Below the pieces are notes generated by a model. That model worked only from the letters and a program-made list of their open reading frames with translations. It made no database searches and was not told the DNA's origin. From Octopus vulgaris (Eukaryota), in NCBI GenBank assembly GCA_951406725.2, contig OX597820.1:80910001-80974000 (forward strand): 64,000 nt of DNA, written 5' to 3'. Position numbers and translations under genes: made by a program. Of the stretch, positions 87 through 31,900 are shown in pieces; within the stretch, counting starts at the first letter, position 1, and each line of letters opens with the position of its first letter.

Positions 87-260
87 TTTCTAAACAACCT
101 GAAATTCTACGCGATGAGATCAAAAAGGCAATAAAAGAAAAGGATAAATCAGCTTTAGAGAGTTTGATAAAAACTTTTGAAAATATAAGACTACCTGAAC
201 TCGGTTTGGATCTCAGTCGAGCAAGAGACGTTTTAAGAAATTTAGGTGGTGATTATGAAG
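87..260 (+). CDS. repeat exon 1 (type A, 174 nt)
   Basis: ttag|..|gttagt; [57 protein letters not shown]. Confidence 0.9.
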
Positions 261-1066
261 GTTAGTTACCTTATAATAACAGTATGCGTATACGTTTGAA
301 AACTAGTTAATTTCTATTTATAAATGAGAATTATAATTTTGACTCATAATATTAAAATCAACTGTAAATATTGATGGATAGAAATTTTCTAAAAGAAAAT
401 AATCAATGAACACCCAAACTATCTTGTACTTTATATCTCTTTATAACTATAGATTCATTTCTAGAACATGTTCTTCCTTACAGTTAATATTTCGAAACTG
501 ACTTTATAATAATTTTCATAAGGAAGAAAACTTTTGTTTATCTAAATAGATGCGTGTTTATCCTGATAACTAGTATTTACTTTTTTTATGTATTAGTTAC
601 TATTAATAGTTTTCATATTTAGTGGTGATATTTAAACCATTTCAATTAATAGGGAACGTTTCTGTGAAATCTCTACGTGAAAAATTGCAAAAGGCGATGA
701 AATCTAAAGATAGACGTTTGCTAGATTCCGTCATAAGAGAAACTGTGGTCGCAGGCATTCCAGAATTAGAAACAGACTTACAACAGGCTAGAAACCTGTC
801 TGATATTCTTTCAGGTGGCAGTGGAGGTCAGCATTTGGATTAGTGTTCTGTTTTATAATCGTATCTTACTGGAACATGTTTATAACATAAATAACAATTA
901 TTATTTTCTCGATATAAAGCAAAATGTCTTTTTAAAACCCTGCTAAGATTTGAACTTAAATTTAATTTTATATCATGTTAACATATTGGTGTTATCTGGC
1001 AATATTGTGCCACATTCTAAACTTTTACATAAAATATACTAAAATAGGTACTTGTTTCAAATTATT

Positions 1067-1131
<65 letters not shown>

Positions 1132-1208
1132 GGCATTATTATACATACATGCCTCACGCTGATAATTTCTTGTTAAGATTCCTTATTAAGAAGTTATCCT
1201 TAATTGTT

Positions 1209-1259
<51 letters not shown>

Positions 1260-2444
1260 TAAACCTTTTTTCCGATTAGATAAAAAGTCTCCTGCCTATT
1301 TGCGCAACCTATTATCAAGAGGTATCAGACAGAAAAATGCATCATGTTTACAAGAGGCTATTAATGAATGCGAAGCAGCTAAATATCCGGAATTATCCTT
1401 TGATCTGCGCAAAGCCAGAGACGTTTTAGAACAACTCACTGGACATCGTAGAGGTTTGCATCTTCTTGCACTCTTGTTGCGTGCAGACAAAGTGGCTAGA
1501 TATCGACAAATTTATAAATTCTCGCTTTTTTTACGAGTTTAAAATATTCGTTTATTTCATATCAGTAAACATTTTATGATTTCATAAAATATAATCGAAA
1601 CATAGATTAATAAAAACAGACTTTAGATATCAATATTTAAATTACAATAACGCGACAAGTTACAAATGTTCTCTCTTTTTTTGCTCAGAAATGTAAATAA
1701 CAATTGCACGTTATTGATGGCTTCTGTTTCGATGAATGCATATGCATATAATTCTATTTATTTGTATCTTTCTCAGTTCATATATAATATGTGCGCGTGT
1801 GTGTGTTGATGTGTATATACTTATATATTGTTAGTGTGGAATAGAACATCGTATTATAATTGTGTCATGTTTACAATATTTCAAGCACAAATTTCTGTGC
1901 AACTGGAGCATGCTTAGTGAAGTGATTGTGAGAATCCATTAATACCAGCCAAATTTTGATTACTAGGAACACTGACACCTGAGTCTTTACGAGAAAAGTT
2001 GAGGGAGGCAGCTGCCACAATGGATCAAGACGAATTGGACAATGTAATAATGGAGTGTATAGCTGCAGGTCTGCCAGAATTGGATGCTGATATAGAAAAG
2101 GCTCGGCAAATCTCTCAGGATTTAGAAATGCAACGACACAGAGGTCAGATTGAAACTAAATCGAGAATTTACTTTCGTTTACACAACGACTTTAGTTTTA
2201 AGACTGATACTTATGTTTAAAAAATGTAGCTTCACTTTAATCATAATTATTTTAGTCTTTTATAGCCTTTCTTAACATTTTTCCTTTGTGTAAATAATTG
2301 AACAACTGATAGCAGATGATTTCATATTTTGTCAATTTATATATCGATATGTTATGATTTCACGTTATCTTATAATAGTTTTATAGTTTTATCAAACTAT
2401 ATTGTTTTAACTTTTTAATCAATCTTTTATCTATTTCTTCCCCT

Positions 2445-2517
<73 letters not shown>

Positions 2518-4757
2518 CTATTTGGTCGCACAACTCCATACGTACACACGTATACATATGTGTGCGCGCATGTGTATCTTTAATCTTACCGTTTCTTCTT
2601 TCGATGTTCAGACATACAATCTCCAGATTCATTGCGAAAGCAACTGGCACTTGCAATGAAACAAAAAGATGCCGGTAGCCTTGAAAAACTAATTGATGAA
2701 TGTGAGGAAACAGGTTATCCTGAATTAGGTTCCGATTTGCGCAAAGCCAGAATTACGTTGGAAAGTTTAGGTGGAGGACGTGGAGGTTAGATCTCAACTT
2801 GTTTTAATTTTATCTTAGTTTCTATATCTAAGTACTTTCTATTTCGTTGTATTCCGATTGAGTAATTCTTGGTTGTTGAATTTCCTATAAGCAATTATTC
2901 ACTTCTTTATTATTAACTTTATTATTCAATTTAGCTATTCATATTGGAGTTCTTTGAGATTTTCCCCACTTCTGAAACATATGTCAATACATATAAAACA
3001 GATTCCATCCTGTGATTTTTTAAAAAGTTTTTTTCTTATTGAATTGTAAAATATTAGAATTCTTAATGACTAGCTAATGCATATTAGAATCATCAAATAT
3101 AGTGACGTACATTAAATATCTTGCTATATTACTTGAATAAATGCTGTTAAATTTTGGTTATCAGGAATAATGTCACCTGATTATCTACGAGACAAACTAA
3201 AGTCTGCAATGGAGACTAAAGACAAAGAAGCTTTGGACAGAGCTATTCGCACGAGTATTGCAGCAGGAATGCCTGATTTGGAAGTTGATATACAAGAAGC
3301 TAGACGAATGTCTGATATCCTAGCTGGTGGTGATGGAGGTTAGACTCAATGTGTTTATCCTTCGCATGCTGCCTGGTTTTAGTAGATTTCCATAGAAAAT
3401 CTATTAGAACTTAGAGTAGTTGCAAGTTTAGTAGTTAATTTTATTCATATTTAATTAATTTTTTTTATCACACAATTTACATATTATTGATATTGATTTT
3501 TCCTTACAACTTATTTAGTTACAATTTGTATATTTTCTCTGTATAAACGTCAAAAGAGTGAGCTCCAACGATTATTCGAATGGATGCGATAAATGTTTTC
3601 GACCTAACGTAGTTACTCTTAAACGGTAATATAGCTCTGATTTTCGAGCAATGATATAAAATCGATTCAAAGTTTTATTAGTAATGAGATTGAAAATGTC
3701 AAATAATTACAAAAGTAATAAAGTAATTTAGAAGATGATATAAAATAAGGTTGATGATGATGGTGATGAGGTTAATGTAAGAATCGATCATGATGATGAC
3801 AACGTTGATGATTATATGATTAAAACTTAAACAAGAAACTATTTAAAGGATGTTTTCTTTTTTCTAAATGTTTGTATAGAGAGGGAATGTCCATTTTATT
3901 TACGAGATAATTTGGCCAAAGCTATCCGAAGCAAAGATCCACAGGCGTTGAATGATGCTATCAAAAGCTGTGAAGAAGCCGGATATCCAGAGCTTGGTTC
4001 GGATGTTCGTAAAGCAAGGGATGTTCTTGAAAGTCTTGGAGGTGGTCGTGGAGGTTAGAAGTTACAAAAAAATATTTTCTACTTTTCGCATGGCCACAGT
4101 AGTTCAAGAAGCAAAATGTGATGTAATTTACAATAAAAAAATTGTAGAATCGATAGTCGCTGGATAAAAGATATAAAAGAAAACTTTATTTATGTCCTGC
4201 ATGCTAACCTGCCGAGATCGATGATGCTTTTATCCTTCCAGGATTGAAAACATTAGTGCTTGTCAAATACAGAACTCGATCTAATTGTAGTTGGTAGTAT
4301 TTTGAGTCACGTGTGCATATAATGTATATGATCGATTTGTTTTCTAAACCTTGTTGTCACTATATATTTTTCCGTTAGGAACAAAATCTCCTCTTCAACT
4401 AGAAGAAAATTTAATAACTGCTATGAACGAGGGAGACAAAGAAAAATTAGAACGTGCCATAAATGAAAGCATCGCTGCTGGAATGCCTGAACTTGACAAC
4501 ACTATAACTGAAGCTAGAAACATTCTAGGTGCATTAAAGGAATCGCAGGAAAGAGGTTTGAACCTCCACTCAATTTTAAGATATACGTAGATTAGTAAAA
4601 GAAAAAAGAATTGTCGACTTTCATGAATGCATGCATGCATGTATACATACACGCACACTCTCACACACGCACAGAGGCACACACATTCGCACATAGACAC
4701 ACACAAGCATATGTATGAGTATATACATACTATCCATCTATCTATGTGTATATATGC

Positions 4758-4799
<42 letters not shown>

Positions 4800-5135
4800 A
4801 TGTATGTATGTATGTATGTATGTATGTATGTTGTATGTATGTATGTATGTATGTATAAAAGATACAAAGAGTTTTCGTCAGGATGACTCAAACCAATACG
4901 TTTGCACTCTGAGTACTCAAATCAAATAGGTATGCAAAAATGCGAGCAAGTTACCTAATAAAACAGTTGAAGAAGGAGAAGAGTACGAGAACAGGACAAC
5001 GGCTGAAACGTTGTGGTCAAACAACCGAGATATGGATATTAATCTGAATACATACACACATTCATATTTATATATATATTCACATACACATGTGCATACA
5101 CACGCGTACACACTCATACACAAACACTTATACAT

Positions 5136-5183
<48 letters not shown>

Positions 5184-5654
5184 TGTTAGAAAATAAATTA
5201 ATTTTGATTTCAGAAGTAATTCATACCTCATTTACAAACGAATCTATTATTTTTTTATTGCGAGAGATGTGTAATCATAATTTGAAAGAATTATTATTAT
5301 ACTCTGTCAGTGGTTTGATAGAATTTTTATTATATTCTTTCTTTGGTTTTACATTAGTGCCTAAATCTGCTGAGAACTTACGTGAGGAACTGAAAAAAGC
5401 ACTAAGAGAGAAAGACAAAGCCGAACTGGAAAGATTAATTATAGAATGTGAGGCAGCACAGTTAGCCGAACTCGGTCTAGATCTACGGAAGGCTAGACGA
5501 ACGTTGCAAATTTTAGGCGGTGGTCACGGAGGTTAGCGATCAACAGCTACAAATATGCGCAATTCTGAACATATACATGCAAACAAAAATGCGTATATCC
5601 ATGAATGTATATCTATGTATGTATGTATATATGTATATGTGCATATACATACAT

Positions 5655-5752
<98 letters not shown>

Positions 5753-6187
5753 GTTCTTCACTCATTTATTACTGTTCTTATTTTATGTAATCTCCATTGT
5801 CCAGAAATCTTTCGTCACACATATGTAGCCTCTTCAACGACCCTTCCCATCCACGTGCATCCTTCTGCTTCACTTAATGTGCATATATATATATATATAT
5901 ATACAATAAAAATGGTAAATAATTTTCCTGTGGTTTTTCATGTAACCAACAATTATTTACCGGTAAATTTCGGTATGTAAATACGACAAAATAATTGTCA
6001 AGACCTTTGTAAGGTTCAGTATATAGTAAAGAAAAATAAGTTGGCTAGCAGCGAGCTGTTTCGCCTCATACCGAAGGAATTAGAAATGGCAGTCAAAGAC
6101 CCTTTTTTCCATTTCTATAAGTGGAGATTCCACTAATTCCTTCGGTATGAGGCGAAACAGCTCGCTGCTAGCCAACTTATTTTTCTT

Positions 6188-6250
<63 letters not shown>

Positions 6251-6765
6251 ACATGATATTAAAGATTCAGTTCATAAAATGACCCTAAAATATACCTGCT
6301 GCAATGTGTTATAATAATTATGCTTTATAGTTAATTTTCGTACAAACTAAATGCAGATGTTTTATATATATAATTTCCGATTTTGAAAATACATACACAA
6401 TCCCATACATTTGTACTGAATATATATATATAATTTTTTTCGTGATGAGATAAAAAAACAACGCTGTGTAGATTTTAGAACATTTATAGATAGGTCTTAT
6501 AGGTGTTTCCAGGATATTTATTATATCCCTTCATCGGAGACGGTGTGAGAGAATGGTTAAGTAATAGTTAATTTAGATAAGCGTTGGGTTTTTTTTTATC
6601 TAATTACGAAAAAATTTTTTTACATACACACGCTGACATATGACCAACGTTCAACCCCTTATTTGCATAATCACCGAACCTGGAACTCAGCTACGGTCTA
6701 CCAATAGCACTTATTCAGCATTACCTGATATCTTTGGGTCTCAATGACACCATTACGTCTCATAA

Positions 6766-6802
<37 letters not shown>

Positions 6803-7958
6803 TGTTAAATTATGCTTATAATTATATTATACTATATATACTTCTATTAAAACTGCAAAATAATCACAAACCGTTCCATTAGTGATATATATATACACCC
6901 CTTTCTCCATACATCAAATCATATAAAAAGTTTAACACTGTTCTCACTTCAGTCATAGCCAATTTTTGTAATATTAATATTTATCAAATTTCTGCTGATT
7001 AACGTTCAATAAAATAAATTTGTTTGATTAATTACGTGCCTTCAAAAGCGTAACGATGCAAATTAGACTATCAACGTATATCCTAGCCAATTTATGACTG
7101 CGTTTTATAGTATCCTAATATTCAATGCTGCTGATTGAGGAAGGAAGCCGAGTACTTCTCTGACGTATGACTAACAAGTCGTGGAACAGTCGGTCGGAGT
7201 TTCGCCCTACTTTTCTTCAGTTTATGGGGATCCCCAAAAACTGATAATGATATGAATATAATATAATGCACAGATAAATAAATGGAATTAAATAACTATA
7301 TACATTAACAAATTAAATTAAATACAAAAAGAACAGAAAAAATAAGCAGATATAAACAGATGAACAAAATAAATAAAAGCGAATTAAACGAACATGTATA
7401 AACATTTGTAAAAGAATATAATAAAGTATGAATATAGTAAGAATATTATAAAATATTAAGGTTGCAACAACCAATTATTTTAAAGATTATCTGCATTAAT
7501 TTTCATCCCGTAGGATCAATGAGTCCAGATACCTTAAGGAAAAAACTAAATGATGCAATGAAATTAAAAGATAAAATTACTTTGAATAAAGCCATTCGCG
7601 AGTGTGTAATTGCTGGATTTCCCGAAATGGATGCTGACATACAACAAGCCAGAGATGTAGCAGATAAACTTGGTGGTGGCACAGGAGGTTAGAACAATTA
7701 TTTCAACCCGACTAAGAAACATAATTAAGAAATTTAGTATTTTATAAATATAAATAGAGTAAAATTTATATCTTATTTGCTTTATGTTTTTATGATTATA
7801 TTTGCAATAATACAGTGCTATCGCAGCGATCTTATTCTGTACAAAGCCTTCTAAATCGATAATTTCGGTGTGGGGATGTGTAGTCTAGGGTGTGTCAATG
7901 TAACAAAATATAATATAAATATATTATATGCACGCGTACATATAATACATGTGTGTTT

Positions 7959-8017
<59 letters not shown>

Positions 8018-10734: not shown

Positions 10735-10778
<44 letters not shown>

Positions 10779-11169
10779 TCAGACTCTCACGCGCATATCT
10801 ATATGACTAGTTTGTATGTGTTCTTGATGGTGACAAGTTTATAAGAAAGCCACTGCTTTACAAGGTCCGTAACAAGGCCATCGGGCGAAGCAAAATATAT
10901 TTTGTCGGACTCACGGTCATGGATTAAACTTAAATATGTATCTATGCATCTATATAAATGTATGTGTACGTACGTGTGTGTTTCTGCGTGTGATACATAT
11001 AGAATTGTGACTAAAATTCTTTGACAACATCAATATATATTGTTAATATTTATGTACACTATAGTGAAAACACGAAAATAGCCTTACATTCAATAAATGC
11101 TTTGCAAAATAAATGAAAACCTAAGCTTATGTAAAGTCTCAAATTTCTTCTGATAATATTAAAGTAGCT

Positions 11170-11234
<65 letters not shown>

Positions 11235-11249
11235 ATGATAATTTACATC

Positions 11250-11281
<32 letters not shown>

Positions 11282-12360: not shown

Positions 12361-12403
<43 letters not shown>

Positions 12404-15400
12404 TTCATCATCATCTATGAATAATTTCTGAAAAAATTATTTAATGTTTGCCTCCAGTGTAAGTTCATAATGATATTTTCTCAACCACTCTTCTAACAGA
12501 CAAAAAGTCTCCAATTTTTCTCCGCAACCAATTATTAAGAGACATGAGAAAGAAAGATCCTGAAAATTTGAAAAAATCCATACAAGAATGTGAGGATGCT
12601 GGATACCCTGAATTGGCATCTGACCTCCGTAAAGCAAGAGATGCCCTCGAAAGTCTCGGAGGTGGCCGCGGAGGTTAGCCTGGAGTTAAACATTCCATGT
12701 CTAAATAAATTTCTTTCATCAGTAGTTAGTTCTTGTAATGTTTAAACAGAGTACAGTTTTTAACTACAGATTAAAGCCATAAAAAGAATTTTTAAAGCCA
12801 TTTCTAAGATTTTGTCTTTCAAAATTATATTATTATTATATGACATATTTTAGGAATTTTCCTATTTCTCAATTTCTGTATTGTTGGAATGTAAACAATA
12901 AGATGTACTTGGATAATGTTTTAGGAATATTATCCCCTTTCGCCCTTCGTGAGGAACTGCAAAAAGCAGTTATGGAAGGCACCATAGACGATATTGAGGA
13001 AATTCTTGATAAATGCATTGCTGCTGGAATGCCGGAATTGGACTCTGATATAGAACATGCCAGAAGCAAACTGGATGAACGACGAAAATATGAAGGTTCG
13101 AAAGTTGATATTGAGCAATTTTTTCTCAGTAATGCCATCATTTTTACGAGACATTTTCTCCTTCGTGATAAAAATCATTGAATAACGTGAGCTACATCAT
13201 AATTTCTTTGATATTTTAAAAAAAGTTGTATAAAGGTGGTATACGTATATTATATGTACGTAAAGCTTTCAAAATTCGTACAATTGTTGAATATTACTGT
13301 AGTTCTAGTAGTTTTAAATATATACTTTTATTGCTTATTAATTTTGTTATTAAATTTTGCTTTGATTCTAAAAATGAAAGGTGAATTTATTGTTATGCTA
13401 ATGGCCTAATGAAATCCAAATCTATTTCGTTCTTATATGTAGCTTCTCCAGATGCATTGCGTAGAGAATTACAGAAAGCAGTTGAAGCTGGAAACACGGC
13501 TGCTTTGGAGAAAGTTATTAGTCAATGTGAAGATGCCGGTCATCCAGAATTGAGTTCTGATTTGCGAAATGCAAGAGATATTCTAGAGAGCTTAAGTGAT
13601 GGTCGTGGAGGTTAGATTTTTATTTCAATCACGTAGATGTATAGTAGTAAGCATGTAAATGTATAATACTTTTACAAGCGATTACAAACGAGATGCATTT
13701 CAGTATATTGCACGAGAAATCTATTCCCCGTTGGTTTTAGTGGGTTCCAAATTTCATATTGTGTTTGTGCCAATAACATTATTGTAGCTCAATGATCTTC
13801 ATCCTCTTTTAAGATGCTGATGTTTCCAAAATATAACATCGAATATGGCCTGGTGTGAAGCCCGATATCAGTGATTAGCAAAATTTACTTGACTTTGAGC
13901 AAAAAATGAAAGATGTCTGCAAGTCTCTTCTTTCTTCTTGTGCTCACATCATGAGACATTTTGATCTCACATGAGAAACTTTTGATCTATCATGAGAAAC
14001 ATGGCGTACTTGCTATCACAGTATCTTTGTCCATGTTTCGGTTTTATAATATGATTTATGATATGAAATACATAATTATATAATTCAATGAATTATGATT
14101 CTGCAACAGCGGCGCATTTCTTGATTAATCTATGTTGCAAACCTACTTTTAATTGCTATTTTAGGGGTTACACTAATCTCTAATAGTATTTGAGAGTGAT
14201 ATGAATAAATTTTAACTTTATTATTGATAGGACCGTGTTGTGATTACTGTTCCTAGTTGTCTAAAAATTTAACTGATAAATGATTAGCAGTATGAAAAGT
14301 ATCTTAATAAAGGAAACTTCATATCCAGACATGCATTAATAAATTGATAGTAAATATGAAAATACAAAACAAAATGTACTTGGGGATTTGAAATCATTAT
14401 ATTCATTTGAAACCCTTGCATTTCTAATTCATTTCTGAGTTTTAAAGGGAGTTCCATTTTATGTAAATGAATGACATAAGCTCTTTTATCATATCAAGAA
14501 GTTTATATTCTGATGATTCCGAGGAAAATTAAAAGAGATTATAAAAAATGATGGCAAAGAATCTTTGGAAAAAAGTACTCTAGAATGTGTTGCTGTTTGA
14601 ATAACTGAACTCGAGGCAGTGTTGGTGACGTCGTATGCAAAAACGGATCTTTCACATCCTAGTTTCAAGAGATGCCTCTCGAAATCTCTAACCTCTGTCA
14701 GTGTGTCTTATGGTTGTCATGTACAGAAATGGAGAGAGCGGGGAGCATTGAAGAACCGAACACATAGTACTGAAATATCCCGACAGGTGTCCAGTCACTC
14801 TGATCATCATCAGCCAGCCATCATTTCCTGTATTTTGCCAGCTGTTATCAGCCTTTCGCAGGACTCTGTATTCTTATCGAGAGTCGCAATAGGCCGTCAA
14901 TATCGGTGGTGAAGGACACTTCCGTTTACAATTCGACATCTACTCCAAATTTTTGAGCAGAGTGTCACTGAAAAGCCGCTTACACCTAGTTCAATAGACA
15001 TTTCCTTCACTACTTTTCACGTCGAGGACCACCATTTTCCCATCTGGGTTCTGGAAGATCCATCTGTATCTGAAGGCTGGTGCCTTTCTGGAGCAGCACC
15101 ATCATCCATATTTCCTTTCCATACCAAATAAGATGCAAAGATCTGAAAAACACCTTCACCCAGCTAAAACGATAATGATAACGATAATGATGGTGGTGGT
15201 GCTGGTGGTGGTGGATAGGTTTGGGGTGTTAGAGCAAGTGATAGTAATGGCAATAATATTAACAACAAAAACAACATTGACCTCAATAGGGACGCTGCAC
15301 AGCATGTAATTTGTGCAGTAGAGAATCCATTCATATATTACGCTAGAAGAATGCTGTCCTTAATAAACAGTTTGATGTAATCACATTCTGTCGGTATACA

Positions 15401-16432: not shown

Positions 16433-16507
<75 letters not shown>

Positions 16508-17194: not shown

Positions 17195-17227
<33 letters not shown>

Positions 17228-17244
17228 CATGCATATATATATAC

Positions 17245-17294
<50 letters not shown>

Positions 17295-17757: not shown

Positions 17758-17791
<34 letters not shown>

Positions 17792-17962
17792 GCGACGAGC
17801 TTCTTACAGTTTTCACCTAACAAATCCACTCACAAGGATTTGGTTGGCCCGAGGCTAGAGTAGAAGACACTTGCTACGCATTGGGACTGCAGTCAGAACC
17901 ATGTGGTTGGGAACCAAGCTTCTTACCACACCCACACCTGCGCGCGCGTGTGTGTGTGTATG

Positions 17963-18008
<46 letters not shown>

Positions 18009-19340
18009 ACAAATAAGATGGTAATTTTTTCGAAAAAATTATCATCTTATTTCTCTCGTACAATACATATATTGTACGTGTGTGTATATATATGTGTGTG
18101 TGTGTATATAAACGTGTAAATAAATACAAACAAATGTTTGTTTATATTTATCTACACGTAGTTATACATATGTATATATATATATATATATAGTGTGTGT
18201 GCGTGAATGCGTGTGTCTGTGTGCGTGCGCGTGTGTGTTGGACATAAGTGTCATCTATTCTAAAAATCCTTGTCGTATCCAACGGCCTTCTTTTCGATAA
18301 CATCAATTAATAAAGTTTTGATTGGGTTAATCACATCCTGACAGAGAAAATTACTCCGCAATGAAGTCATGTAAATATTTCTTTGTTTGCTCCACTAGGA
18401 ATGTAAAAACCATGATAGATAGTTATATACGACACGTTACTAGCTGCTGTTGTATTACCAAATGATGAGCATTCTGCTGTACTTCTGAAACAGTTTTCCA
18501 TTATTCCTTCGTTCTATTTTTAATATATCACAAATAAAACAACTAACTGGTGTGGTTTCTTTATCTCAAAATATGAGGAATCCACTCATCGTCCCATTAT
18601 ATTTGGTTTGCTATGCGGTAGTATATTTTAATTTTGTTCTTTTTGTTTTGCCGATAATTACACTGCTTTGTTCAGGAACATTTTTTTAACTAAAAACGCT
18701 AGCTAAATCTATTGTCTATTGTTATAAAACAAGCGCGGAATGTTAAAATTGTATTTTTAGCTTGGGTATAATAGGGCAAATATTTTCTATACAATTCAAT
18801 ATATTTAGACATTTGTCTTTGTTAAGATTCCTGCTTTAAGGTTGTCTTGTTACAGAATCCTGCACTATTTATTAATCACTGAGATGAGAAACATCGTTAG
18901 CACAATTCTACACCAGTAAAAATTCAACAATATTTTGTTGAAAGTTCGTGATGGATTACTTTCAGAAATATTCGCGAACAGCAATTTCTGATTCACTTAG
19001 TCTATTTCGGATAGCAGGAACAAAGTCTGGCGATTCACTTCGTGAAAAACTGAAGGCAGGAATTTGGTTAGGAGATGAAGAACATTTACGAAATATTGTC
19101 AATGAATGTGTTGACGCTGGCATGTCAGAACTTGATTCGGAAATATGTAGAGCAAGAAAGCTTCTTGAATATTTGAATGATTCGCTTAAAGGTTTGGTGT
19201 TTATTGAGTTGAAGAAATTTGAAAACGGATATCGTTCTAATGATTATTCCATTTTTTCTCATACCATAACCTTAAAAACGTTTACTACAATCCTACACAC
19301 ATACACACAAACATACACACACACGCACACATGCACACAT

Positions 19341-19387
<47 letters not shown>

Positions 19388-22300
19388 TGTAAGTTATTAA
19401 GTTTCTTTAATTCTTACTTCAACCTTCGGATTAAAGTGAAATACATTCGAAGTACGATTTTACTGTACTTTTTTAGTGAGTTCCAAAAGTGCATACTTTC
19501 TGGTAAATTCAGCCATGTGCTTTATCGGAAATATATTGACATATTATATGTATAATATCACTTTGTATAATTTCTAGTAAGAAGAGATATTATTATTTAT
19601 TTGATATTGAAACTGATCTGCATTCCATTCTCACCTCGTTACTAAACTTATTTTTATTTAATGAATTGTTTAGAATGTTTTGGTTAAGTTCAAAATGTGA
19701 AAAATCTCTATTATTAATATATTGAAATTAATACTTAAAATGGTGAGGAAGATATCTAAGTAGAGTACCTAGTTAAATACATTAAAGTTTCCTGGTTCAT
19801 CCACTTCTATATATACAGTTGGAATTTACAGAAAAAAAAAGACGAAGACAGGTGTCTAAACAACAAACAGGTGTACAGTGAACATGTTTCAGAGCTGAAT
19901 AGTTTTTAGCTATGCTTTAGTATGCACTTACCTAAAAATTATCTTTGGGCATATGCACAAGAACTAATTTTATACATGAAGCTAATAAATAGCGTTTTTG
20001 ATATATCCTTAGCACTATGAATGTGAAGGGTTCAAAAATTTTCTGAATTCCAGTGTACATATCACGAGATGTTGGCATTTAATAATGAGTCTAACCTAGG
20101 CAATCGGCCAACAATTTGAGAGAAGGGCTTAGTTACTTTAATCAACTTCAGCTCCTGACTTGTTCTTTATTTTATTGAAACCAGGAAGATAAACGACGGA
20201 ATTTGGAGCAGAAAGTCAAATCATTTTGACCGAGGCTCTGAAAGTTTTGCTTATTCATCGCCCTGATGTCAACGTTTAAATATATGATCTCACTGTTGTA
20301 CGTTTATTTTTTCAGCTATTTTTATTATATCTATAATACTACAAAACTTACAATTTTTACTTCTATCTTCCAATTCATTGAACCTTAACTGAGTTGACAT
20401 CGGCAGGAGTTGAACTCAAAATATAAAAGAGATGTAAAAGGAAGATGTTATAATTACTTCAACGGTTAATTTATCTGCCACTTTAGCAACAATGCTTAGT
20501 TAATGCTGTTGCAAAATATATTAATTTGAAACCGTAATGAATTGATATAAAATGTATAATTACAGATGATCTTCCACTGAATTCAGTCTGTAAAGTAATT
20601 TTCTTTAAATTTATTTTACTTTCCTTCAACTTCAAATATCTCAATTACGCACGGAAAGATTCCAATGACATCAAATGACTCATGAGAGGCATTAATAAAA
20701 TAAGAGCTAAACTATATTGTGTTTAATGGAGTAACTACTTGTCCCTATGGACAATACCAGACGGTGTTTTTTAGTCTTCCCAGTGTTATAAAAACAATGT
20801 TAAAGCAAAATAGTAGTGGCTTACGTTTCCCTTGCGTGTTAATTGTTCTATACCGTGATATAAATACATATATTGTAATTTGTTCAATGTACCCTTACAC
20901 GCTGTCGGTTACAGTGTCTCCCGCTCATCCTCACTCAGTATGTCTCTCCGCTATCATCCTCATCCTTGTTAACTATGTTTTTTGGTTTTTTTTACTGCAA
21001 CCAAATTTCCCTCACACTCTTTTTCATTTTAACCACCTTTTTCAGTAAATTCGGATTCTTTACTCTTTATCAAAAATTTCGATTTTATACATTAAGAAGG
21101 CGAAGATGTATTACAAATACTATACACATTTCATAATTACAACTTACAACCATATAAATGCTAAATTTGAGTAATAAAATAACATCTCCAGAGATATGTT
21201 TCGTTTTTGTAGCTTGCAATTTCATTTCTGAACTGAGACATTTAAACATCTTCGCTTATATTCACACTACACGAAATAGTTTCAACTCTAAAATTAAACG
21301 AAAAATGCTTTTGAATGAGGCATCAACCAGTAAAAACAACATAGCTGATATCAGTATTTTTACATTAATGGATGACTGATGCATGCTTGAGAAAATGCTA
21401 TACAATATATTTTTCAATACATGTATCATTTAAAGATGTATATGAGTTGTTTGCTAAAAAATCTTTCAAACCTTTTTAAAACCCTGAGATTATAGCAACA
21501 AGAAATATAGAAAGTGAAAAATAAAAGAGCCAAAAATTCGGACAATGATTTTGTCGTATTTTCAATGTTTCGGCTGGGACAGAAGAGAATAATATGATCG
21601 ATAGTAATCACACGCTGTCCTTTTTTTTTTTTCCTATAGGATCAATAACACCCGATTCTTTGCGTAACCAGTTAAGACGTGCTACCACCCAAAAGAACAA
21701 AGCAAGTTTGGAAAGGGCTATTCACGATGCTGAAGCTGCTGGTTATCCAGAACTTACTTACGATCTCCAAAAAGCCAGGGAAACTCTTGAAAAACTTGGT
21801 GGCGGTCGAGGTGGTGAGATAACAATTATTTATACTATTCTTATATAAGTGTAATTTTTATCGGATTTGTCTTCCTGTGTGTCTCTTTGTTTTACTTATT
21901 TTTCTTTATAATTAACATGTATGTTTATTTAACAGATCTATTTATTTGAATGCTGCCAAATTTGATAATGCTTTACATTTGTCTTGAAAATAATAACATT
22001 CCAATCACTTTTGTTGTTTTTTTTGAGAGCGCGAGATCTTATTTAATATTCCAGTTATATGCTCATTTTCACTGTTTCAGGAGACTGGACTAAAAGTAAA
22101 AGATTATTTCACTTATTTTATATTTCAGTTATTTTGTACATCATAAAAATTTAATGTTACAGGAAAATATTTTGAATTTCTACAGAAAAATTATTTAACT
22201 ATTAATATCATAGTCCGTATATGTTTGTTCCGTTTATTTCACACATAGGAAATACTTTTGATATAAATACATTTCATGTTGTTGACATTATAATATACAG

Positions 22301-22688
22301 CTATTTGAATCGCTATATGAAAGAAACCAAGAAATAATTTGGATTTGAAAAGGAAACATGAATATCATAATAAAAATCAAATATTTTGTCATTTATAGTT
22401 GAATGTTTACCAGTGATATATGCTTATATTGTTAAGAAAAAATTTTTTTCTGTTAGCTATATTGTTTCCTTTTACTGAAAATAAATTACATCGATCAATT
22501 TCAATCACTTATAGAAACTTATAAAAATTATTATATGCAATATTTTCCTGGTCATTATCTGTTTATCAAATCCCACAAACGCTTACACACCACACAACAC
22601 ACCACATAACACACGCACAATTCACACTCACACACACACACAGATATATATATATACATACATGTATATATATATACATACATACACG

Positions 22689-22736
<48 letters not shown>

Positions 22737-22778
22737 CATACATACATACATACATACATGCATACATACATACATACA

Positions 22779-22809
<31 letters not shown>

Positions 22810-22846
22810 GTACATACATACCCCATATATATATATACATACATGC

Positions 22847-22899
<53 letters not shown>

Positions 22900-24947
22900 G
22901 TCATCCCATAAATAATACGGTTTTTTATACTTTTATTTTTCAAAATTTAGACAAAGTTCTTTTTCAATCTAAAATATATTCTCCTTCATTTTTTACAATG
23001 CTCTTCCATCGTGGAAGACTTGCAAGGCTCCTTCTTCCAAAATTCACTTGTCCGGTACGAAAAATACTCCTCCAGTACTGTTCTGACCTGGTCTACAGAA
23101 TTCATATTTTTTCCGTCCAAATGATTTTGAAGACTACGGAAAGAATGAAAGTCGGATGGGGGCACTGTCCGGTGAATATGGTGGTGGGGCATCGTTTCCC
23201 ATTCAAACTGCTCCGGCCTTTGGAATGTCATCCTCGCTGTATGTAACCGATCTTTATCCCGATGAAAGAACACCTTTCGTCTTGAAACCAAAGATGGACG
23301 TTTTTCTTCTAGCGCTGACTTGAATGATTGGTTAAATGACCAAATCTAAGCTCTCTGCTAGTTCCTCAGCAGATACGATGGGATTTTACTTCACCAGAGT
23401 TTGCAGGACGCCCTCGTGGAGTTCAGCAGATCTTCCAGGACGAAGCTCGTCTTCTAGGCTGTATTTCTGAATTTCTGGATCCACTGTTTACACTGGCTTA
23501 CGCTTATTCCCCGATCCCCATATACTTTATTAATATTCCTCACACGTTCCGTTGCGTTGATGCCTTTATTGAACTCATAAAGCAGAATATGCTCCTTTGT
23601 TACTTCTATTGTAGCTTTGGAAAAATAACTATTAAAATCGAACTGCACTCTTCAAAACTTGCACTAAGAATAAACACAAAGTAAAATTACTATCTGCATT
23701 TATAGCAAGTTGATGCAGATAGTTTATCCCGTCCCCCTCCGACCAATCAATTGAAAAAACCGCATTATTTATGGGATGACCCAATATATATATATATATA
23801 TAAATGGGATTTAAAAATCCTGGCATATATCAATTAAGCACTCAGTATAAAAGAATAAGATTAAATTTCCAACAATCAGATACCAATAAATGTAAGTAGA
23901 GTACAAATCCCAGGTAAATCCTCATGCATGACAGGTAAATCCAACAATCCTTTCGTAGAATTTTAAGAAATTCAGAGTATTTAACAACAATAAATATGTA
24001 CGAAGAAAAATCACATCTTTATTTTAGATCACACCTTAAAGATCTAACAATTGTTTCAAAGGAAGATTGCGTAACGACTTGACTTCGAGGAATGTTTTAA
24101 TTTATAATGGTTTCACATTTGCAGTGCTACGGAGTGATGGCTGCTGACTGTTGAATTTGAAGGCTTGGATCTTCTTTCATATTTTCCAGATTCTTTCCCA
24201 ATGGTTCTTTTGTGGAAACGTTTTGTTGTGCCAATTTATAAAGTTAGGTGGGAGGGCTCCGCCTTGCTCGGTGAAATTCTATGGTGATCAGTGCTAGATA
24301 GTCGGGTGTATCTATATTTCGTTTTTATTCATTGTTGTAGCTGTTTCTTATATGTTTTTATTTTTTCTGCCTTTCAAGTTATGGTTGTGCCTTACATCTT
24401 GTCCTTATTCTGTTTTTGAGACTTCAACATCCATATCACAGCAGATATTCACCGTGTGCCCTTAATAGACGTACTCCTTTATCTCCTCGATTTCATCGCT
24501 TTCCAATTCTATTCGACTTTGTGCTACGTCTTCCGACTGCATATATTTTGTTTTCATGTGGTTCATTTTAAGAGCTTTGTTAGAGTCGAGATGAACGCTG
24601 TGTTGAAATCTCTGGAAATGCAAGGTTTCAAGGTACAATACATCAAACTGCTCAGCGATACAAACTCTAGATGCACAACAGATATAGCTCTGCTATCACC
24701 ACCAGTAAGAGCTCCATTTGAGAAGGCTGTCAAGCAAGGAGACACCATCTCTCCAAACCGCTGTATCGCATGTCTAGAAATGGTTATCAAGGACATCGGC
24801 TAGACAGGTGTTGTAAACATCAATGGCGAGCAACTAACACAGCTCCGACTTGCAAATGATATTGCACTCATCGCTGAAACCACAGACCAGCTGCAGACCA
24901 TGCTGACAGAGCTGGACACTCAGAGCTTAGAAGTGGGACTTTATACA

Positions 24948-25017
<70 letters not shown>

Positions 25018-25032
25018 CATATATACATACAT

Positions 25033-25066
<34 letters not shown>

Positions 25067-25527
25067 GTCAGCTAATGATGGAGGTAAGTTGGATTGTTGG
25101 TATGGCTGTGGAATAACACATCCTTTTGGTATATAATGCCGTGACATCTGCTATACAATCTCACCAAGTCCCAAACTAACAAATATTATTATGTTACTCC
25201 ATATATTCTCTACAAATAGGCAATCGAGTCGCAAATGACAACAAAATAAATCTGAAAAATCGAATATTTCATTGATTAAGCAATTATTAAGCAATGGATT
25301 ATCTGGTTAATTAGGTATTTGACGAATAATGATATAAGGAATCGAATTATAACCAATGCTTGTGATTTTATTGGCACATTGACCCCTTCCAAGACATACA
25401 TGTATATATATATACACACACACACCTCACTTGTATATTTACCACTTCTAAGGTTCCACTCGCTATGAAATATATATAGCCCGTATCTTATCTACTTCAT
25501 TCCTTAATTCTTGTATGTATGTATGTA

Positions 25528-25580
<53 letters not shown>

Positions 25581-28390
25581 TGACGCGACAATTCAGCGCT
25601 AAATAATTCAGCGCTAGATAATTCAGCGCATAGACAATTCAGCGCAGGGCATCTAATTGAACTTAGGTAAAGGTTATATTGGGGATGAAAAAAAAGGGAG
25701 GGGGGTTATTTCAATTATTTATTTAAAAACATGTAAAGATAAAAAGCTACAGTAGTTAGCTACTTAAATTTTTATAGGAGCTTCAAAAGGTGTAGTTGTC
25801 GTTTCGTATGAGCATGTGTATAGATAGAAATATTTATTTTTTGCTGATGCTTTATTATGACCTGATTATTTTTAAAGCTGTGTCGGTTTTTGGAGTCTTT
25901 GCTGTATTCATCATCATTACGTCACATGTATGGGGCGAAAATTAAGTCCAACATGTTGGAATTCTTAGCTATACTCCTCTTAGAAAATACCGGTATATGC
26001 GTCACATTGTTTTTTATCGTTTTTTGTAACACACGCTCACATTCATATTACGCATATACAATATAATATATTATTTAAAATATGTATCATAAAATATATA
26101 TATTACTTAAATAATTTATAACATATATATATTGGTGTATACATACATTAATGTAAACACTGGTATGGATTTTACAGCATTTTACTCGTGACATATATGT
26201 ATGCATATTAATGTATATGTGTATGAATGTATCTATTTATATGTATGCAAATATGTTTTTGTGTATCTATGTGTGTATAAAATCTTACTGGCTGATATAC
26301 AAAATATGTTTCCCGATTTTGGATATTGAAAAATGGACAATTAGGGCTTGTGGTAAGGATCTATTTAATTTCTTCCTCCATTCCGATTTCTGAAATTGTT
26401 CTATTTAAAACTTAGGGATAGCTGCTCTTGGTTTCCAGAGAACTGTCACTCAACAGCGTTTCAGAGAAAGCAGATTGGGTCGTCCCTCTTCAGGTTATGA
26501 TGAATATAAAAGAATATCATCAGAGCATTTTCAAAATAAAGATTCCTCACATATTGGGGATAACAGATTCAGAGGTTGGAACAATAATTATATTCGTATA
26601 AATCTGACATAACATAAGTGTAGATAATTTTAGCTCCGACTTAAAATATTAGTCGAAATATAAAAACATATCTGAAAATTAAATAAAAATCAGTATTTTA
26701 TAATTGCTGATCGAAATTATAATTGAATTATATTTCGATTTAATTTGAAACCTTTAGTTATTTGTGTATATACATCCATACAAATACACGTGCACTCATA
26801 CACACATGTACATATATATATGTATATGTGTGCATGTATGTGTGTGTATTTCAGAATAGCTTTGATAATGGTTTCTAATTTAGGCACAAGGTCAGTAATT
26901 TTGAGGGAATTTGTCGATACCATCGACCTCAGTACTTCTTTGGTATTTAAAAAAAAATTAAACCTGAAAGAATGAAAAGCAAAATTGGCCTTGGTGTGAT
27001 TTGAACTGAGACCGTAAAAAACCCGGAATTAATAGTGCAAATCATTTTTTCCGATGTTCTAAAGATTCTACCAGCACACCGAATTTGGAATAGTTTATAA
27101 TAATAACATTCATTTATCTATGTATCTACTTGCTTACCATTCTAAGAATCATCGAACGATAACTTTGAATTTTAGATTCCAAAACAGATATTAAGTCCCC
27201 AGGTAATCTGCGCTGCCGATTACGGACAGCTGTTGAGCGGAAAGACAGAGTAAATCTTGAAAAAATTATCGAAGAATGCGAAAGTGTTGAGTATCCAGAG
27301 CTTGGCCCTGAGCTGTATGAAGCAAGAAAAACTCTTCAACAGCTGGGAAGCCGCTTCGAAGGTTAGCATTGTATTTTTAGCATTTTAATAAGATTTATTA
27401 GCAAGGGTTTTTAAATATCATGAATACAACGAACTGTCAGAAATACTAACTCAATTTCTCTTTACTGATATTTCTAACAGTTGATTACGAAACATAAAAC
27501 AGAGTAAGTATAAGGGAATAAGTGTTAAAGATTATATTGCTAATTTCTGAATATCAGTTCACTTGATATATAAAATCTTTATACATTCATGATAAAGTGA
27601 ACATTTACTTCAAACTTTCACAATCTGGTACAAAATGCTAGTTGCATGATTAATGATTTTAGAAGGGATTTTAAGAGTTTCTCTTTAAATATTTAATGTA
27701 AATGAAATTCTGTTTTCATGAATTTGTGTAGTTGTGGACCTCTAAACTATTTCAAGGAATCCTAACATCCTAACAAATTTTTCTGATCATTAACCGTTGT
27801 TGGTATTTGTGTTAGTGTGTAGCCATCCTTATGATCAGGCAGGATTATTTATTATGATAGGTATTAAGCAATTATATCTTTAATAAGTTTTCATTTAATT
27901 TAAATTTAAAGGAAAGTGAAAGATCAATAACATTCTGAAAAACAAAATATATTTTGATGCATGAAATTAAGTACCAAGTGGTATTTTATCAATTACCAGG
28001 GAGTACATCACCCAGCATTTTTCGAGACAAACTTAAGGATAGTATTAAGCTAAAAGATGAAAATGAAATCGCATCAGCTATTAACAGATGTATTGCTGCC
28101 GGCTATCCTGAACTTCAAAGTGATGTTGATAACGCGCGAAAGTCTTTGAACATCTTACAAGGCGGGGATGGACGTAAGATGTTATTTAATGATATTTTTC
28201 ATCACAATGCCAATGTTTTCACCACCAATGTAATCATAATAATGTTGCTATCATTTGCACAGGAAATGTGTGTATACACGCACACGCACATGCACAAATG
28301 CGCGCACGCACGCACACACACATACACACACACTCAACTCGCGTGCACACACACACACACACACATATGGTTAGAAATAATTTATATATG

Positions 28391-28447
<57 letters not shown>

Positions 28448-28871
28448 CATATGTGTGTGCGTATTTGAAAATGACTTTATAAATACGCACATATACATTT
28501 ATACATGCATGAACGCATATATACTCACACACACACACTCTCACCCATCGGTTCTTCATACGTTTTCAACATAGAGCAATTACAATGCACTTAGCTGTAA
28601 AGCACATGACAGAACTAGATAAGCAAAGGTTAGTGGGAAACACTTCTAAGCTCAACTGAGTTGTTAAATAAATTAAGCGATTAGTGATGGAAGCTATACT
28701 AATAACATAGTGGAATGTTAAATGCACAGACAACACATACTAGTCGCACTCAAAAGAAAAATATCTGACTAATGACGTATTAATTTAAAGGTCGAAATTC
28801 AAATTCCGGTGGTAACATCAAAACAATGACATTGACACTTTGTCTAGCATAAAGTAGCACAAACACACACC

Positions 28872-28906
<35 letters not shown>

Positions 28907-31900
28907 ATATAACAAAATAATAAATAAAACATATGCATATATACATACACATATGTACATACCTACATCTATATGTATATATACATGCATATATGGGTAT
29001 AGGACACCAAAAAAAAACGTAGAACACAATGAGAAACGAAAGCATAAAAACAAAACCATGGAAACAGACTTTTTTCAAACAACGAAAAAACAGTGTACGA
29101 GACATACAACATAAGGAATATTCCCCTTCTTCAGTTGCCCCTGTTTCGACTACTCCGTCCAAAGAAGGAATAGTGTCTAAAAAATCCCCCATTCAGTGAA
29201 ACTATGTAGCTTTACAACAAATATTTAAAGTACACACTTTCACATACAACTGCAATCTTTTTTTATTTTATTTAATCATTTTTTTACCATAAAGAATATA
29301 AAACTGTCTCTCTTTTCAACTTTTTTCCACTCCTCACTGCAAATTCACTGTACTCTTCTTATCAATTTTAGCACAATACACACCCACATGCTTGTGCGCG
29401 CGCACATACACACACTCACTTAAACGTTAATAACGAAGTAGTAGAATGAGTACTCAACACCAAAAAGACGGATGAAGCTATTGTTCATATAATATTAGTT
29501 ACTTCTCCAATACCTGAAGCTTCCTACTGATAGTGATCAGCATTTTTAACTGATAATCTGACATTAAATTTGAAGAGTGTTCATAAAATTACAGAATAAT
29601 TTTATCTTACGCATCTAGTAATCCCATATACTAGCATTATTTGCTGTATAATTCTGTAATCTGAGTAAATGAACGGAAAACAAAAATTAATCTTCTTATC
29701 AAATAACACGTTTACTTATTAATATTTACAGAAATAAATTTAAATTAGTTACGTCTATTTGAATGCTTGAAATTCATATTTTGTTTGAAATTCTAATATC
29801 TGCGCTTTCTTTTATATGTATTTTCTTTCTATTTAAAAAAAATCTATGACTGTTGGGTTTATCATCAACTAGATATTACTTCAGCAGAAAAAATCAAAGA
29901 TCAACTAAGGACAGCTATCAACCAGAAAAACAAATCACAATTAGACAATGCAATTTGTGAAGCTGAAGAAGCTGGTTATCCAGAAATCTCCGGTATTCTT
30001 TGCAAAGCGAGGGATACTATGGAAAGTTTGGGTTATGGTCGTGGAGGTTAGTTTATTATAATTCACTTAGAAAATGCACTGAATAATTTGTGCAAAGCTT
30101 TTGTATGTCTGAGTAAAAAGAGAAATAAGTATTGGTGTTGTGGTTTCTGTTACTTTCAAATAATATATTGCAATGAAACAATATATGAGTATTGATACTT
30201 CAATGAAGATGCTGACGGTTAATTATATTTACTGGAGGTTAATGGAGAAAAAGACATGTTAATGGAATGCATCTGGGAGCATGACTATTCGATATGTTTA
30301 CATTTGCATCCCATTGCATGTAATGAGAGAATGAGATTGTTTTGATTGTAACTATATGGAGAATATAAGTACTGTCCACTAAAGAATAAATAGCAGAAGG
30401 AGAATTATGTATGTATAGAAAACTTGGCTGTTTATAAATATATGTTTTCCTGTGTGCTAGAATGTGAGTTAATGTCTGTGCAGAGTATAACATTCAAGAA
30501 GCATATGCAGTTCTCTTGTATGTTACAAAGTTGCCCAATATAAATAATTAGATTTTTGAGTGGGTATATTCTGAAAAGACAAGATTACAGATTACTTAGT
30601 TGTGGTAACTACTTCAAGTGTTGTAGATTGTTAATCTTTATATGTGCATTTCCTATATGCAGAGACTATATATATATATATATATAGTATCCAAAATTTT
30701 GAATGTATATGTGTGTGCGCGCGCGCGTGTGAGTGAGTGTTCATACATTTATAATGCAATTTATTTAGGAACCAATGAATGAAACTAAGTTATTAACTCT
30801 CTGTTCCAAAATGATTTAAGGTTCTTCTTTGATGATAGTTTGTTAACTTTTCAGTAGACGAAGGAAGTATATAGGTGTATTTAGGAAGTATATATATGTC
30901 CTGTAAGCGAGCATTCGTTTATGTGTAACTGGTTTTATACGACATCGTGTAGATTTTTAATATAAAGCTAGGCATGTTCGAAAGGTTCTCACTCAATAGA
31001 GCTGCGGATGAAAAGAGATATGTCAATAAATGCTGAAACAGTACGAAGAATTTGCAATCCGTGTGATTGTAAATGTTTGCAAGTTAGGTGATTAACTTCT
31101 GGAGAAAATCATTATATAAATGGCAGTGCAATACTCATTAAATCTATTTTTTCCTTGATAGCTTTTGCTAAAGGTTTATCAAAATTTTAAATCACTGATA
31201 GTTATTTTCCTTCACCAGGAGTAAAGACCCCCGATTCCCTGCGCATTAAACTTGACCAAGCAAAAAGACAAAACGATAAATCGACATTAGAAAGTGCGAT
31301 TGAAGAAAGCATTGGATCCGGACATCCTGAATTGATGTCTGATATCCAGTTAGCTCGCTATGCTCTTGATTTTATGGAAGAGGACTGCGCATCAGGTTGG
31401 TTTTAGTTAGCTTCTGCGAAAAGGCCCATAAATATTGAATTAGGCTTCAATATTTTCTTAGCTTTTGTGACAGCTTTAAATAGTTGTTTTTTTTTTAATT
31501 GCAGTTTAAATAAAATCTGTCTGCATGTTATTTTGTACAACCTTGCGTTTTTAATAGCATTAAACTTTCATTATACTCAGTATAATGAAAATTACAATAA
31601 GATATTTTAATATGTTTTTCTTCTCTATATTTGAGCAATAGCTTTTAGCTATTTATCTAATGCCAAATATAGAACAGATATCAGGAATTAGATTTTAAAA
31701 ATGTTCCCAAATATTTTGTACAGCAAATTATTGTTAATTCTATAAAGCTGCTTTTGGAATCATATCACGTATTGCCTCAAATGGAATTACTTTTGCTCAC
31801 ATTAAATTTGCTTTGCCAATATTACAGTCGCTTTGCCATCTATTTCTGCTCATACTCTTAATATCTTTCTACAACTCTTTGACAGGTTTAGTTGTTCCAC

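Follow-up and report, generated by a model that had tools for sequence, protein, structure and literature searches.

Modules of a long repeat array in the window

A 64,000-nucleotide window of the Octopus vulgaris genome (assembly GCA_951406725.2, contig OX597820.1, positions 80,910,001 to 80,974,000 of the forward strand) was analysed, which contains a row of short, related coding exons of a putative KY/hillarin-like gene. Modules in the window were located with a hidden Markov model (HMM) built from the first ten exons, and upstream coverage extended over 200 kb. We detected 25 intact modules on the + strand between window positions 87 and 47,460, all in phase 1-1 and 168-183 nt long (Table 1). 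The positions, strand and openness of exons 1-19, as well as the lengths of exons 4, 8, 12 and 19, were as given in a preliminary description of the window, and the boundaries between exons 5/6, 6/7 and 7/8 matched RNA-like contigs exactly. A tight regular expression for the motif in that description gave zero matches, and the HMM was used instead. Exons of the window are numbered 1-25 and modules of the whole array e1-e185, exon 1 being e160 and exon 15 being e175.

The window exons form the 3' end of an array of 184 modules that spans ~191 kb and starts at window position -143,636. All 184 modules are open, with 32,091 nt of coding sequence, zero stops and every length divisible by three; the decayed e173 is not counted among them. 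The array is a single locus, since all 92 own-genome matches fell here (150 of 181 candidates scored). Two exons (L008:3167-3514 and L008:5809-6156) fuse two modules, of types B and A as defined below, without an intron, and four similar two-module open frames were found among relatives (P0006-P0009). A decayed module lies between e53 and e54 (window -78706 to -78612). At fourfold-degenerate sites the modules are close to saturation with respect to one another (0.36 vs 0.31), and Pfam scans assigned the module to no family above the cut-off. Because the exons are symmetric, any run of them can be added or skipped without a frameshift. The O. bimaculoides model P0002 is without e66-138, e150-162 and exons 9, 14 and 16-20. 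Helical repeats of a like kind were also seen in a Rhodelphis myosin tail (P0010) and several dinoflagellate proteins, with E-values of 1e-27 to 1e-10 summed over many repeats.

Head, tail and relatives of the gene

The closest proteins were uncharacterised O. bimaculoides models of LOC106876157 (1,769 and 5,242 aa; 84-100% identity per module), and O. sinensis models were 100% identical for exons 17-19. Database models of the gene are uncharacterised fragments of 5,242, 1,769, 313 and 192 aa. A profile search of 1.84 billion representatives produced 286 matches at E<=0.001, and the best 150 of these 286 included a Haliotis protein with immunoglobulin (Ig)-like KY domains and about six such repeats. 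Its head matched same-strand sequence that lies 10-20 kb before e1. Five head exons (L002-L005, window -181625 to -150014) encode a transglutaminase-like core, KY domains and a charged helical linker. Three Ig-like KY stretches (PF23265) lie in one 1.36-kb exon (L005:5988-7352, E 5.7e-60). The transglutaminase-like core (PF01841) scored 25.1 bits in the Argonauta orthologue (cut-off 23); it maps to two exons here with 89-92% identity, a single exon alone reaching E 0.19. The catalytic Cys and His are absent, the locus reading KGSYESLF and RNTWNAV against ...GYAQAF and HAWNAV in 9crn, with the Cys position placed as is usual for the family.

In the Argonauta model P0158 (1,720 aa) the head is followed by e1 and e2, two further modules, one module like exon 15, exons 21-25 and the tail; the model maps in order onto the octopus locus. 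Head and array have the same strand and order and are joined in this one predicted model of another genus; the RNA-like contigs show a join from e2 to exon 15, both within the array. Hillarin has an N-terminal LIM domain and W180 repeats, and LTD-1 has a LIM domain. A LIM domain was not found in Pfam scans of four models (P0158, P0091, P0159 and P0160), and a further upstream exon is possible.

With a four-row profile of the C-terminal ~120 residues, eight of the nine Protein Data Bank matches (E<=10) were dynein heavy chains. The search for relatives of this domain returned three proteins, and in Foldseek on the Haliotis model, where the domain was poorly modelled, Ig matches dominated. The C-terminal domain is likely microtubule-binding-like on this profile evidence. 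Sequence comparison suggests that the array belongs to a KY/hillarin-like gene with a transglutaminase-like and Ig-like head upstream and an end resembling the dynein microtubule-binding domain (MTBD) downstream. Judging from listings, the gene is described in none of the literature searched; supplements and subscription journals lay outside this coverage.

Two alternating module types and a period of four

Exons 1-15 had been proposed to alternate strictly between types A and B and to follow, in addition, a period of four, whose positions are referred to here as A1, B1, A2 and B2. The alternation was borne out: an unsupervised first principal component flipped throughout exons 1-15, and the even-minus-odd lag identity of 0.097 was matched by 0 of 5000 shuffles. 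In a set of 116 non-redundant array modules, alternation on the first principal component held for 107 of the 115 neighbours. Four A-A neighbours lie inside the genomic array, and a nucleotide HMM detected no remnant of the lacking B2 module between e31/32, e136/137 or e159/160.

The period of four was tested against shuffles within parity (5000 each). The window alone gave 117/5000 for exons 1-13, 278/5000 for exons 1-15, 274/5000 for exons 1-19 and 372/5000 for exons 1-25. Upstream, the period was strong in e50-68 (0/5000) and e137-172 (8/5000), and it was absent in e7-31 (1221/5000) and e32-49 (721/5000), both of which keep the period of two. The proposed period is thus real and strong upstream, but the window by itself gives borderline values (p 0.02-0.07), and the first 49 modules lack it. 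After exon 13 the register is broken by a decayed B-type module, followed by exon 14 of type B2 and by exons 15-16, which are A-A.

Class profiles trained on 42 modules outside the window (39/42 correct in leave-one-out) reproduced 15 of the 17 class calls of the preliminary description, but missed exons 5 and 18 by 1.0 and 1.2 log units. Motif counts covered 60 position-labelled modules. LExLI marked A1 (8/16, and 0 in other classes) and D[IK]LxGGxG marked B1 (10/15, B1 only), as had been suggested. Px[YF]LR[ND] did occur in A2, but at a low share (4/15) and also in one B1 module, and ELG turned out to be an unspecific mark of A1 (10 A1 and 6 A2). The B2 modules do lack the Gly linker, with 0 Gly in the last eight residues vs 3.1-3.4 elsewhere, and 10 of 14 are 177 nt long.

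Trees and duplication history

In a tree of the 25 window exons (171 columns), the A/B division required one change and the four classes five changes (shuffled mean 10.4; 0/200 as low), with 1 of 22 branches well supported. A second tree covered 67 modules, with e1-49 and 17 of 18 near-identical copies excluded. The A/B division again required one change, 14 of 15 B1 modules formed a clade (98/93; exception, exon 17), as did 13 of 14 B2 modules (97/91; exception, exon 19), and A1 gathered 13 of 16 modules with weaker support; A2 was no clade. The expected clustering by parity was therefore present on both trees. The four clades predicted for the quartet were not recovered in the 25-exon tree, and in the larger one exons 16-19 stood outside them and A2 was missing. 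Exons 16-19 had been described as the same quartet again; exon 19 has the 177-nt length, and by profile exon 17 is B1-like and exon 19 B2-like, but the trees placed them outside the class clades. The firm B1 and B2 clades, the weaker A1 and the missing A2 clade indicate that the quartet is mainly A-B1-A-B2 and that exons 16-19 are more loosely related to it.

A 2235-bp unit of four exons (B2-A1-B1-A2) is present 18 times as modules e65-e136, between window positions -65286 and -24760 (L014:4714 to L018:5241). The 17 full units have 0-14 mismatches to the reference unit (>99% identity), and the shared sequence stops within the A2-B2 intron on either side. All 72 exons of the block are open, and amino-acid changes are confined to the last copy. 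The copy number could differ between animals or reflect mis-assembly. These copies show directly that the quartet is duplicated as a unit; nearest-neighbour identities (at most 0.71) revealed no clear block larger than four exons, except for the pair e12-13/e16-17. The proposed growth by two-exon and then four-exon blocks agrees with the single A/B change, the B1 and B2 clades, the period of two alone in the first 49 modules and the 18-fold quartet. The confinement of e7-49 to the period of two, with the period of four appearing later, fits a history in which the A-B pair probably came first and the quartet later.

Tandem joins and long skips

Contigs from 4 of 23 listed runs (X1, X3, X5 and X10, from four studies) were compared with window positions 2,520-4,660 and 19,390-22,100, both repeat-free; contig depth was not used for ranking isoforms. 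Joins 5-6, 6-7 and 7-8 at GT..AG, with exon 4 preceding exon 5, were present in 4/4 runs. Exons 4-5-6-7-8 lay on one contig in X3, X5 and X10, and each join was also found in X1. Neighbouring exons are therefore joined together, which excludes mutually exclusive choice and upholds the preference of the preliminary description for tandem inclusion.

Exon 8 was followed by exon 11 in X1, by exon 10 in X3 and by a mixture read as exons 9 and 11 in X5 and X10. Among the loose ends listed, exon 15 was joined to exon 21 in 4/4 runs; a minor join from exon 15 to exon 16 is possible, as eight loose ends were unread. Direct, unmixed joins into exon 15 at exact exon ends came from e57 (X3) and e2 (X5 and X10). 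Mixed ends into exon 15, read by eye, came from exons 13 and 8 in X1, from 13, 14 and e57 in X5, and from 14, e57 and one unresolved partner in X10. Since X3 carries both the e57-to-15 join and exons 4-8, the e57 skip is unlikely to be a genomic loss. Three of the five partners of exon 15 (e57, 8 and 14) are B2 modules, and a B2 module likewise precedes it in the Argonauta model. The joins 8-to-11 and e57-to-15 preserve alternation, and 8-to-10 is B-B.

Inclusion is thus tandem but optional. Fixed inclusion does not hold, because exons 9-10, 14 and 16-20 as well as very long stretches upstream are left out. Counted along the joins, the forms would have 8, 63 and up to 178 modules, giving products of ~1,600 residues, ~4,800 residues (exit at e57) and ~11,500 residues (re-entry at exon 15), head and tail included. 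In X1, exon contigs were ~10,000 deep vs 10-30 for those of introns, a hint of very high expression in this sample type, although contig depth measures expression poorly.

Donor sites of core and optional exons

A pyrimidine occupies position +3 of the donor in 95 of 106 non-redundant optional exons; 105 of the 106 optional donors have AG at -2/-1, and from +7 onward they resemble background. All eight core modules and seven head and tail exons have a purine at +3 (pyrimidine in 0/15). Identity at +3 between modules is 0.63 vs about 0.3 across the remaining intron. As this identity stays high while fourfold-degenerate sites are near saturation, the results suggest that the +3 pyrimidine is under selection. 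Of 99 open frames from distant relatives, 78 read on in the way expected for a pyrimidine at +3, 12 indicate a purine and 9 are ambiguous, which is indirect evidence read from protein. The literature on weak donors and tandem arrays that was searched held nothing bearing on +3 pyrimidines. In 58 of the 106 optional donors the sequence is G/GTTAG, which places an in-frame TAG one codon into the intron, and 49 of the 99 open frames of distant relatives stop at this same point; if such a donor stayed unspliced, translation would terminate immediately.

Predicted structure of the modules

AlphaFold was run on eight O. bimaculoides modules with 12 alignment rows. The model had three helices per module, a predicted local distance difference test (pLDDT) score of 84.5, a predicted template modelling (pTM) score of 0.28 and dips of confidence at each linker. 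In the two B2 modules, the third helix had 20 residues vs 16-17 in the others, and the linkers had 7 and 5 residues vs 9-10. Foldseek with the eight-module model gave generic helical matches with template modelling scores below 0.2, and in the Haliotis model (pLDDT 57) repeats were mostly linked by continuous helices. A rigid junction at every fourth module had been proposed; the linker there is indeed shorter and glycine-free, but the predicted helix is still broken. The B2 junction is likely stiffer in these models. An obligate A-B interface is not supported, given the A-A and B-B joins and the pTM of 0.28. The models suggest that the modules are three-helix beads without a fixed mutual orientation.

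Features of the window

The features of the window are collected in Table 1. Just behind the gene, 53,978-58,681 on the - strand, lie long-terminal-repeat retrotransposon frames with reverse transcriptase, RNase H and integrase in Gypsy-like order, broken into several pieces. Tc1/mariner-like decayed stretches were noticed by eye at about 22,900-23,760 and 38,640-39,610; the single + frame scanned had no Pfam match.

Table 1. Coding exons and module remnants in the window (positions counted from its first nucleotide)
Feature	Position	Strand	Evidence or remark
Exon 1 (module e160), A1	87..260	+	profile
Exon 2, B1	653..826	+	profile
Exon 3, A2	1280..1453	+	profile
Exon 4, B2, 177 nt, without Gly linker	1967..2143	+	joined to exon 5 in 4/4 runs
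Exon 5, A1 slot; A1 and A2 undistinguished by profile	2612..2785	+	contigs, profile
Exon 6, B1	3165..3338	+	contigs, profile
Exon 7, A2	3880..4053	+	contigs, profile
Exon 8, B2, 177 nt	4379..4555	+	branch point: direct to 11, 10; decoded from mixed ends to 9, 15
Exon 9, A1, skippable	5358..5531	+	contigs, profile
Exon 10, B1, skippable	7514..7687	+	contigs, profile
Exon 11, A2	12500..12673	+	contigs, profile
Exon 12, B2, 171 nt	12925..13095	+	profile
Exon 13, A type, 168 nt	13443..13610	+	join to exon 15 decoded in X1, X5
Decayed B-type module, stops, no in-frame acceptor	14497..14661	+	nhmmer E 3.9e-5
Exon 14, B2, skippable; second acceptor 19018	19015..19191	+	profile, contigs
Exon 15, A type, re-entry hub, purine +3 donor	21640..21813	+	contigs
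Exon 16, A1-like, bypassed by 15-to-21 join	27188..27361	+	profile, contigs
Exon 17, B1-like by profile, with exon 23 in trees	28000..28173	+	profile, trees
Exon 18, A type, A2 slot unconfirmed	29873..30046	+	profile, tree
Exon 19, B2-like by profile, 177 nt, with exon 20 in trees	31219..31395	+	profile, trees
Exon 20, divergent B-type module	33748..33921	+	HMM, profile
Degenerate A-like module, frame and splice sites intact; further acceptor 35663	35681..35860	+	present in O. sinensis model P0157
Possible decayed-module fragment, weak	36883..36939	+	E 9.9
Exon 21, core module, A/B ambiguous, GTAAG donor	40550..40723	+	contigs
Exon 22, core module	42712..42885	+	Argonauta model mapping
Exon 23, core module	43834..44007	+	Argonauta model mapping
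Exon 24, core module	45968..46141	+	Argonauta model mapping
Exon 25, core module, 183 nt	47278..47460	+	Argonauta model mapping
Tail exon 1: degenerate last repeat and first half of MTBD-like domain	48485..48774	+	model mapping, profile
Tail exon 2: second half of MTBD-like domain	49904..50095	+	model mapping, profile
Last coding exon, ends at stop codon	51600..51878	+	AATAAA near 52209, 52538, 52648

Discussion

We consider it probable that the locus is a KY/hillarin-like gene of symmetric exons, each encoding one module, multiplied by block duplication and spliced in tandem with optional long skips, whose products would be bead-chain tethers of varied length between a dead-transglutaminase-like/Ig head and a predicted microtubule-binding end. 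An A-B pair would have been duplicated first, diverged into the quartet and spread via unequal crossing-over, which the recent block documents and which may be extrapolated to the older ones. A core of eight modules (e1, e2, exon 15 and exons 21-25) with purine +3 donors would yield the ~1,600-residue form, and optional exons with AG/GTYAG donors would be included according to the splicing state of the cell. Weaker donors may make the optional exons conditional and exon 15 the re-entry point, a presumed cause for joins that are themselves observed. Each module would fold alone as a three-helix bundle, with a somewhat stiffer B2 junction, and the protein may span a cytoskeletal gap as an adjustable bead chain from the dead-enzyme scaffold head to the microtubule-binding end, as its relatives suggest.

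Several observations weigh against this interpretation. The RNA nature of the runs is a guess of the tool, the contigs reveal joins and not whole molecules, with no full-array transcript and no head-to-e1 join seen, and five joins depend on decoding mixed loose ends by eye. X3 comes from another organism, whose genome may be without exon 9, which weakens the 8-to-10 skip. The joins 13-to-15 and e2-to-15 are A-A, so not every join into exon 15 keeps the alternation, which is therefore not obligatory. The best dynein MTBD match is weak (E 0.012, profile positions 9-118), the C-terminal domain did not match Pfam MT, and among the rows of the C-terminal profile the octopus sequence diverges most. 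Dynein donors read by eye had T at +3 in 2/10, with two loci yielding no donor, and array donors share ancestry, which inflates the significance of the donor split in a Fisher test.

A more specific version, which we put forward tentatively, is a splicing-set molecular ruler. The AG/GTYAG donors, as a conserved class, would mark ~175 optional exons that are switched together, a tissue factor would set the length of the inclusion run before the jump to the hub exon 15, and exits would favour the end of a full quartet, after B2. Cephalopods would thereby make a microtubule-anchored tether with 8 to ~178 beads (0.2-1.3 MDa), not related to titin yet tuned in a similar way, whose length would also vary between animals with the copy number of the four-exon unit.

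The best-surviving alternative, although an improbable one, is a largely neutral expansion, in which the short core form alone matters. Optional exons would increase in number through unequal crossing-over and be tolerated, as they leave the frame intact and are left out in most cases. The decayed modules at 14.5, 35.7 and perhaps 36.9 kb and after e53 are consistent with it, the 18-fold block resembles recent copy-number drift, and the Argonauta model has 10 modules only. It is difficult to reconcile with 184 of 184 open modules despite near-saturated fourfold sites, with 84-100% protein identity to O. bimaculoides, with class-specific residues held in register and with long forms spliced in 4/4 runs.

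About as improbable is a fixed tandem rod, in which all modules are always included, the A-B pair is obligate and every fourth junction is rigid. Exons 4-8 share one contig in 3/4 runs, the modules lacking from the register are mostly B2, fused B-A exons exist, B2 modules have the longer third helix and a linker of 5-7 residues vs 9-10, and the 8-to-11 and e57-to-15 joins keep the alternation. Fixed inclusion is already refuted by the 15-to-21 join in 4/4 runs, by e2-to-15 (A-A) and by 8-to-10 (B-B), and the rod also conflicts with the four genomic A-A neighbours and with a pTM of 0.28 and low confidence at all linkers.

RefSeq models (LOC128248363 and LOC118764272) treat exons 16-20 as a small nested gene of their own, a very unlikely reading. 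The 15-to-21 join bypasses them in 4/4 runs, they group apart from the quartet clades, and exons 17-19 are 95-96% identical between species; on the other side, strand, phase 1-1 structure and module family are the same as in the array, the RefSeq models start in intron-like sequence before exon 17, and the possible minor 15-to-16 join would tie them to it. Dscam-type mutually exclusive choice among paralogous exons can practically be dismissed, for although many upstream exons may splice to a single downstream hub and decayed copies lie among intact ones, the 4-8 contigs refute it, two-module exons exist and the hub joins bear long upstream contigs.

With the KY/hillarin/LTD-1/Cyk3 family (Haliotis XP_067666272, Saccostrea LOC133178144) the gene shares a non-catalytic transglutaminase-like core, Ig-like KY domains, helical repeats and the C-terminal domain. 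The Haliotis form has about six repeats with mostly continuous helices, whereas octopus has 184 modules of 58 residues, one per exon, arranged in a four-step register, optional by splicing and with Gly linkers; unlike hillarin sensu stricto, the Argonauta model had no LIM match in the Pfam scan. Hillarin is located at the axon hillock and the cleavage furrow and works together with septins, and the domain of Cyk3 is inactive (PMC3081291, PMC3718969); the octopus core resembles the inactive members that PMC3718969 describes for Cyk3 and hillarin. By sequence (E 6.2e-10) and fold, the best solved relative of the head is Chlamydomonas FAP246 (7n6g_6E) of the ciliary central-pair C1, in which the head region alone matches and a repeat array is absent. 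The end shares the Ile-Ser-Tyr-x-x-Pro, Leu-Gly, Trp and Tyr-x-Trp positions of the dynein heavy chain MTBD (6kio, 6kjo, 7kzm) in a whole-domain profile alignment, but stalk and motor are absent, the first motif is partly missing from the octopus copy and the score is weak.

With titin and nebulin the gene shares a giant chain of modules, position-specific classes, block duplication and a length set via exon skipping. Skips in titin run between exons 50 and 219 (PMC3575840), and super-repeat number sets nebulin length across species (PMC7754682). Their modules are Ig/fibronectin type III domains or 30-residue actin-binding units, unlike the all-helical 58-residue beads here, and there is no homology. 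The octopus skips, unlike theirs, lead to a single hub exon and are associated with a donor class of their own, and the octopus classes are clear for A/B and B1/B2, weak for A1/A2 and without a period of four in e7-e49. Dscam-type clusters, whose tandem duplication and exclusive exon choice are reviewed in PMC9013439, also have large sets of paralogous, frame-preserving exons, but in octopus neighbours are included together. The octopus gene is thus KY/hillarin-like by its head and titin/nebulin-like in its working; it is not homologous to the latter and is not Dscam-like.

This one locus preserves stages of super-repeat evolution, from a period of two at the 5' side through a period of four in the middle and a fresh 18-fold quartet to decaying modules at the 3' side. 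The donor split, with ordinary core donors and +3-pyrimidine optional ones, offers a test of how one splice-site feature could control the skipping of >170 exons. If the long form is made, it would be a protein of >1 MDa whose module belongs to no Pfam family, and length tuning of the titin kind would have arisen independently.

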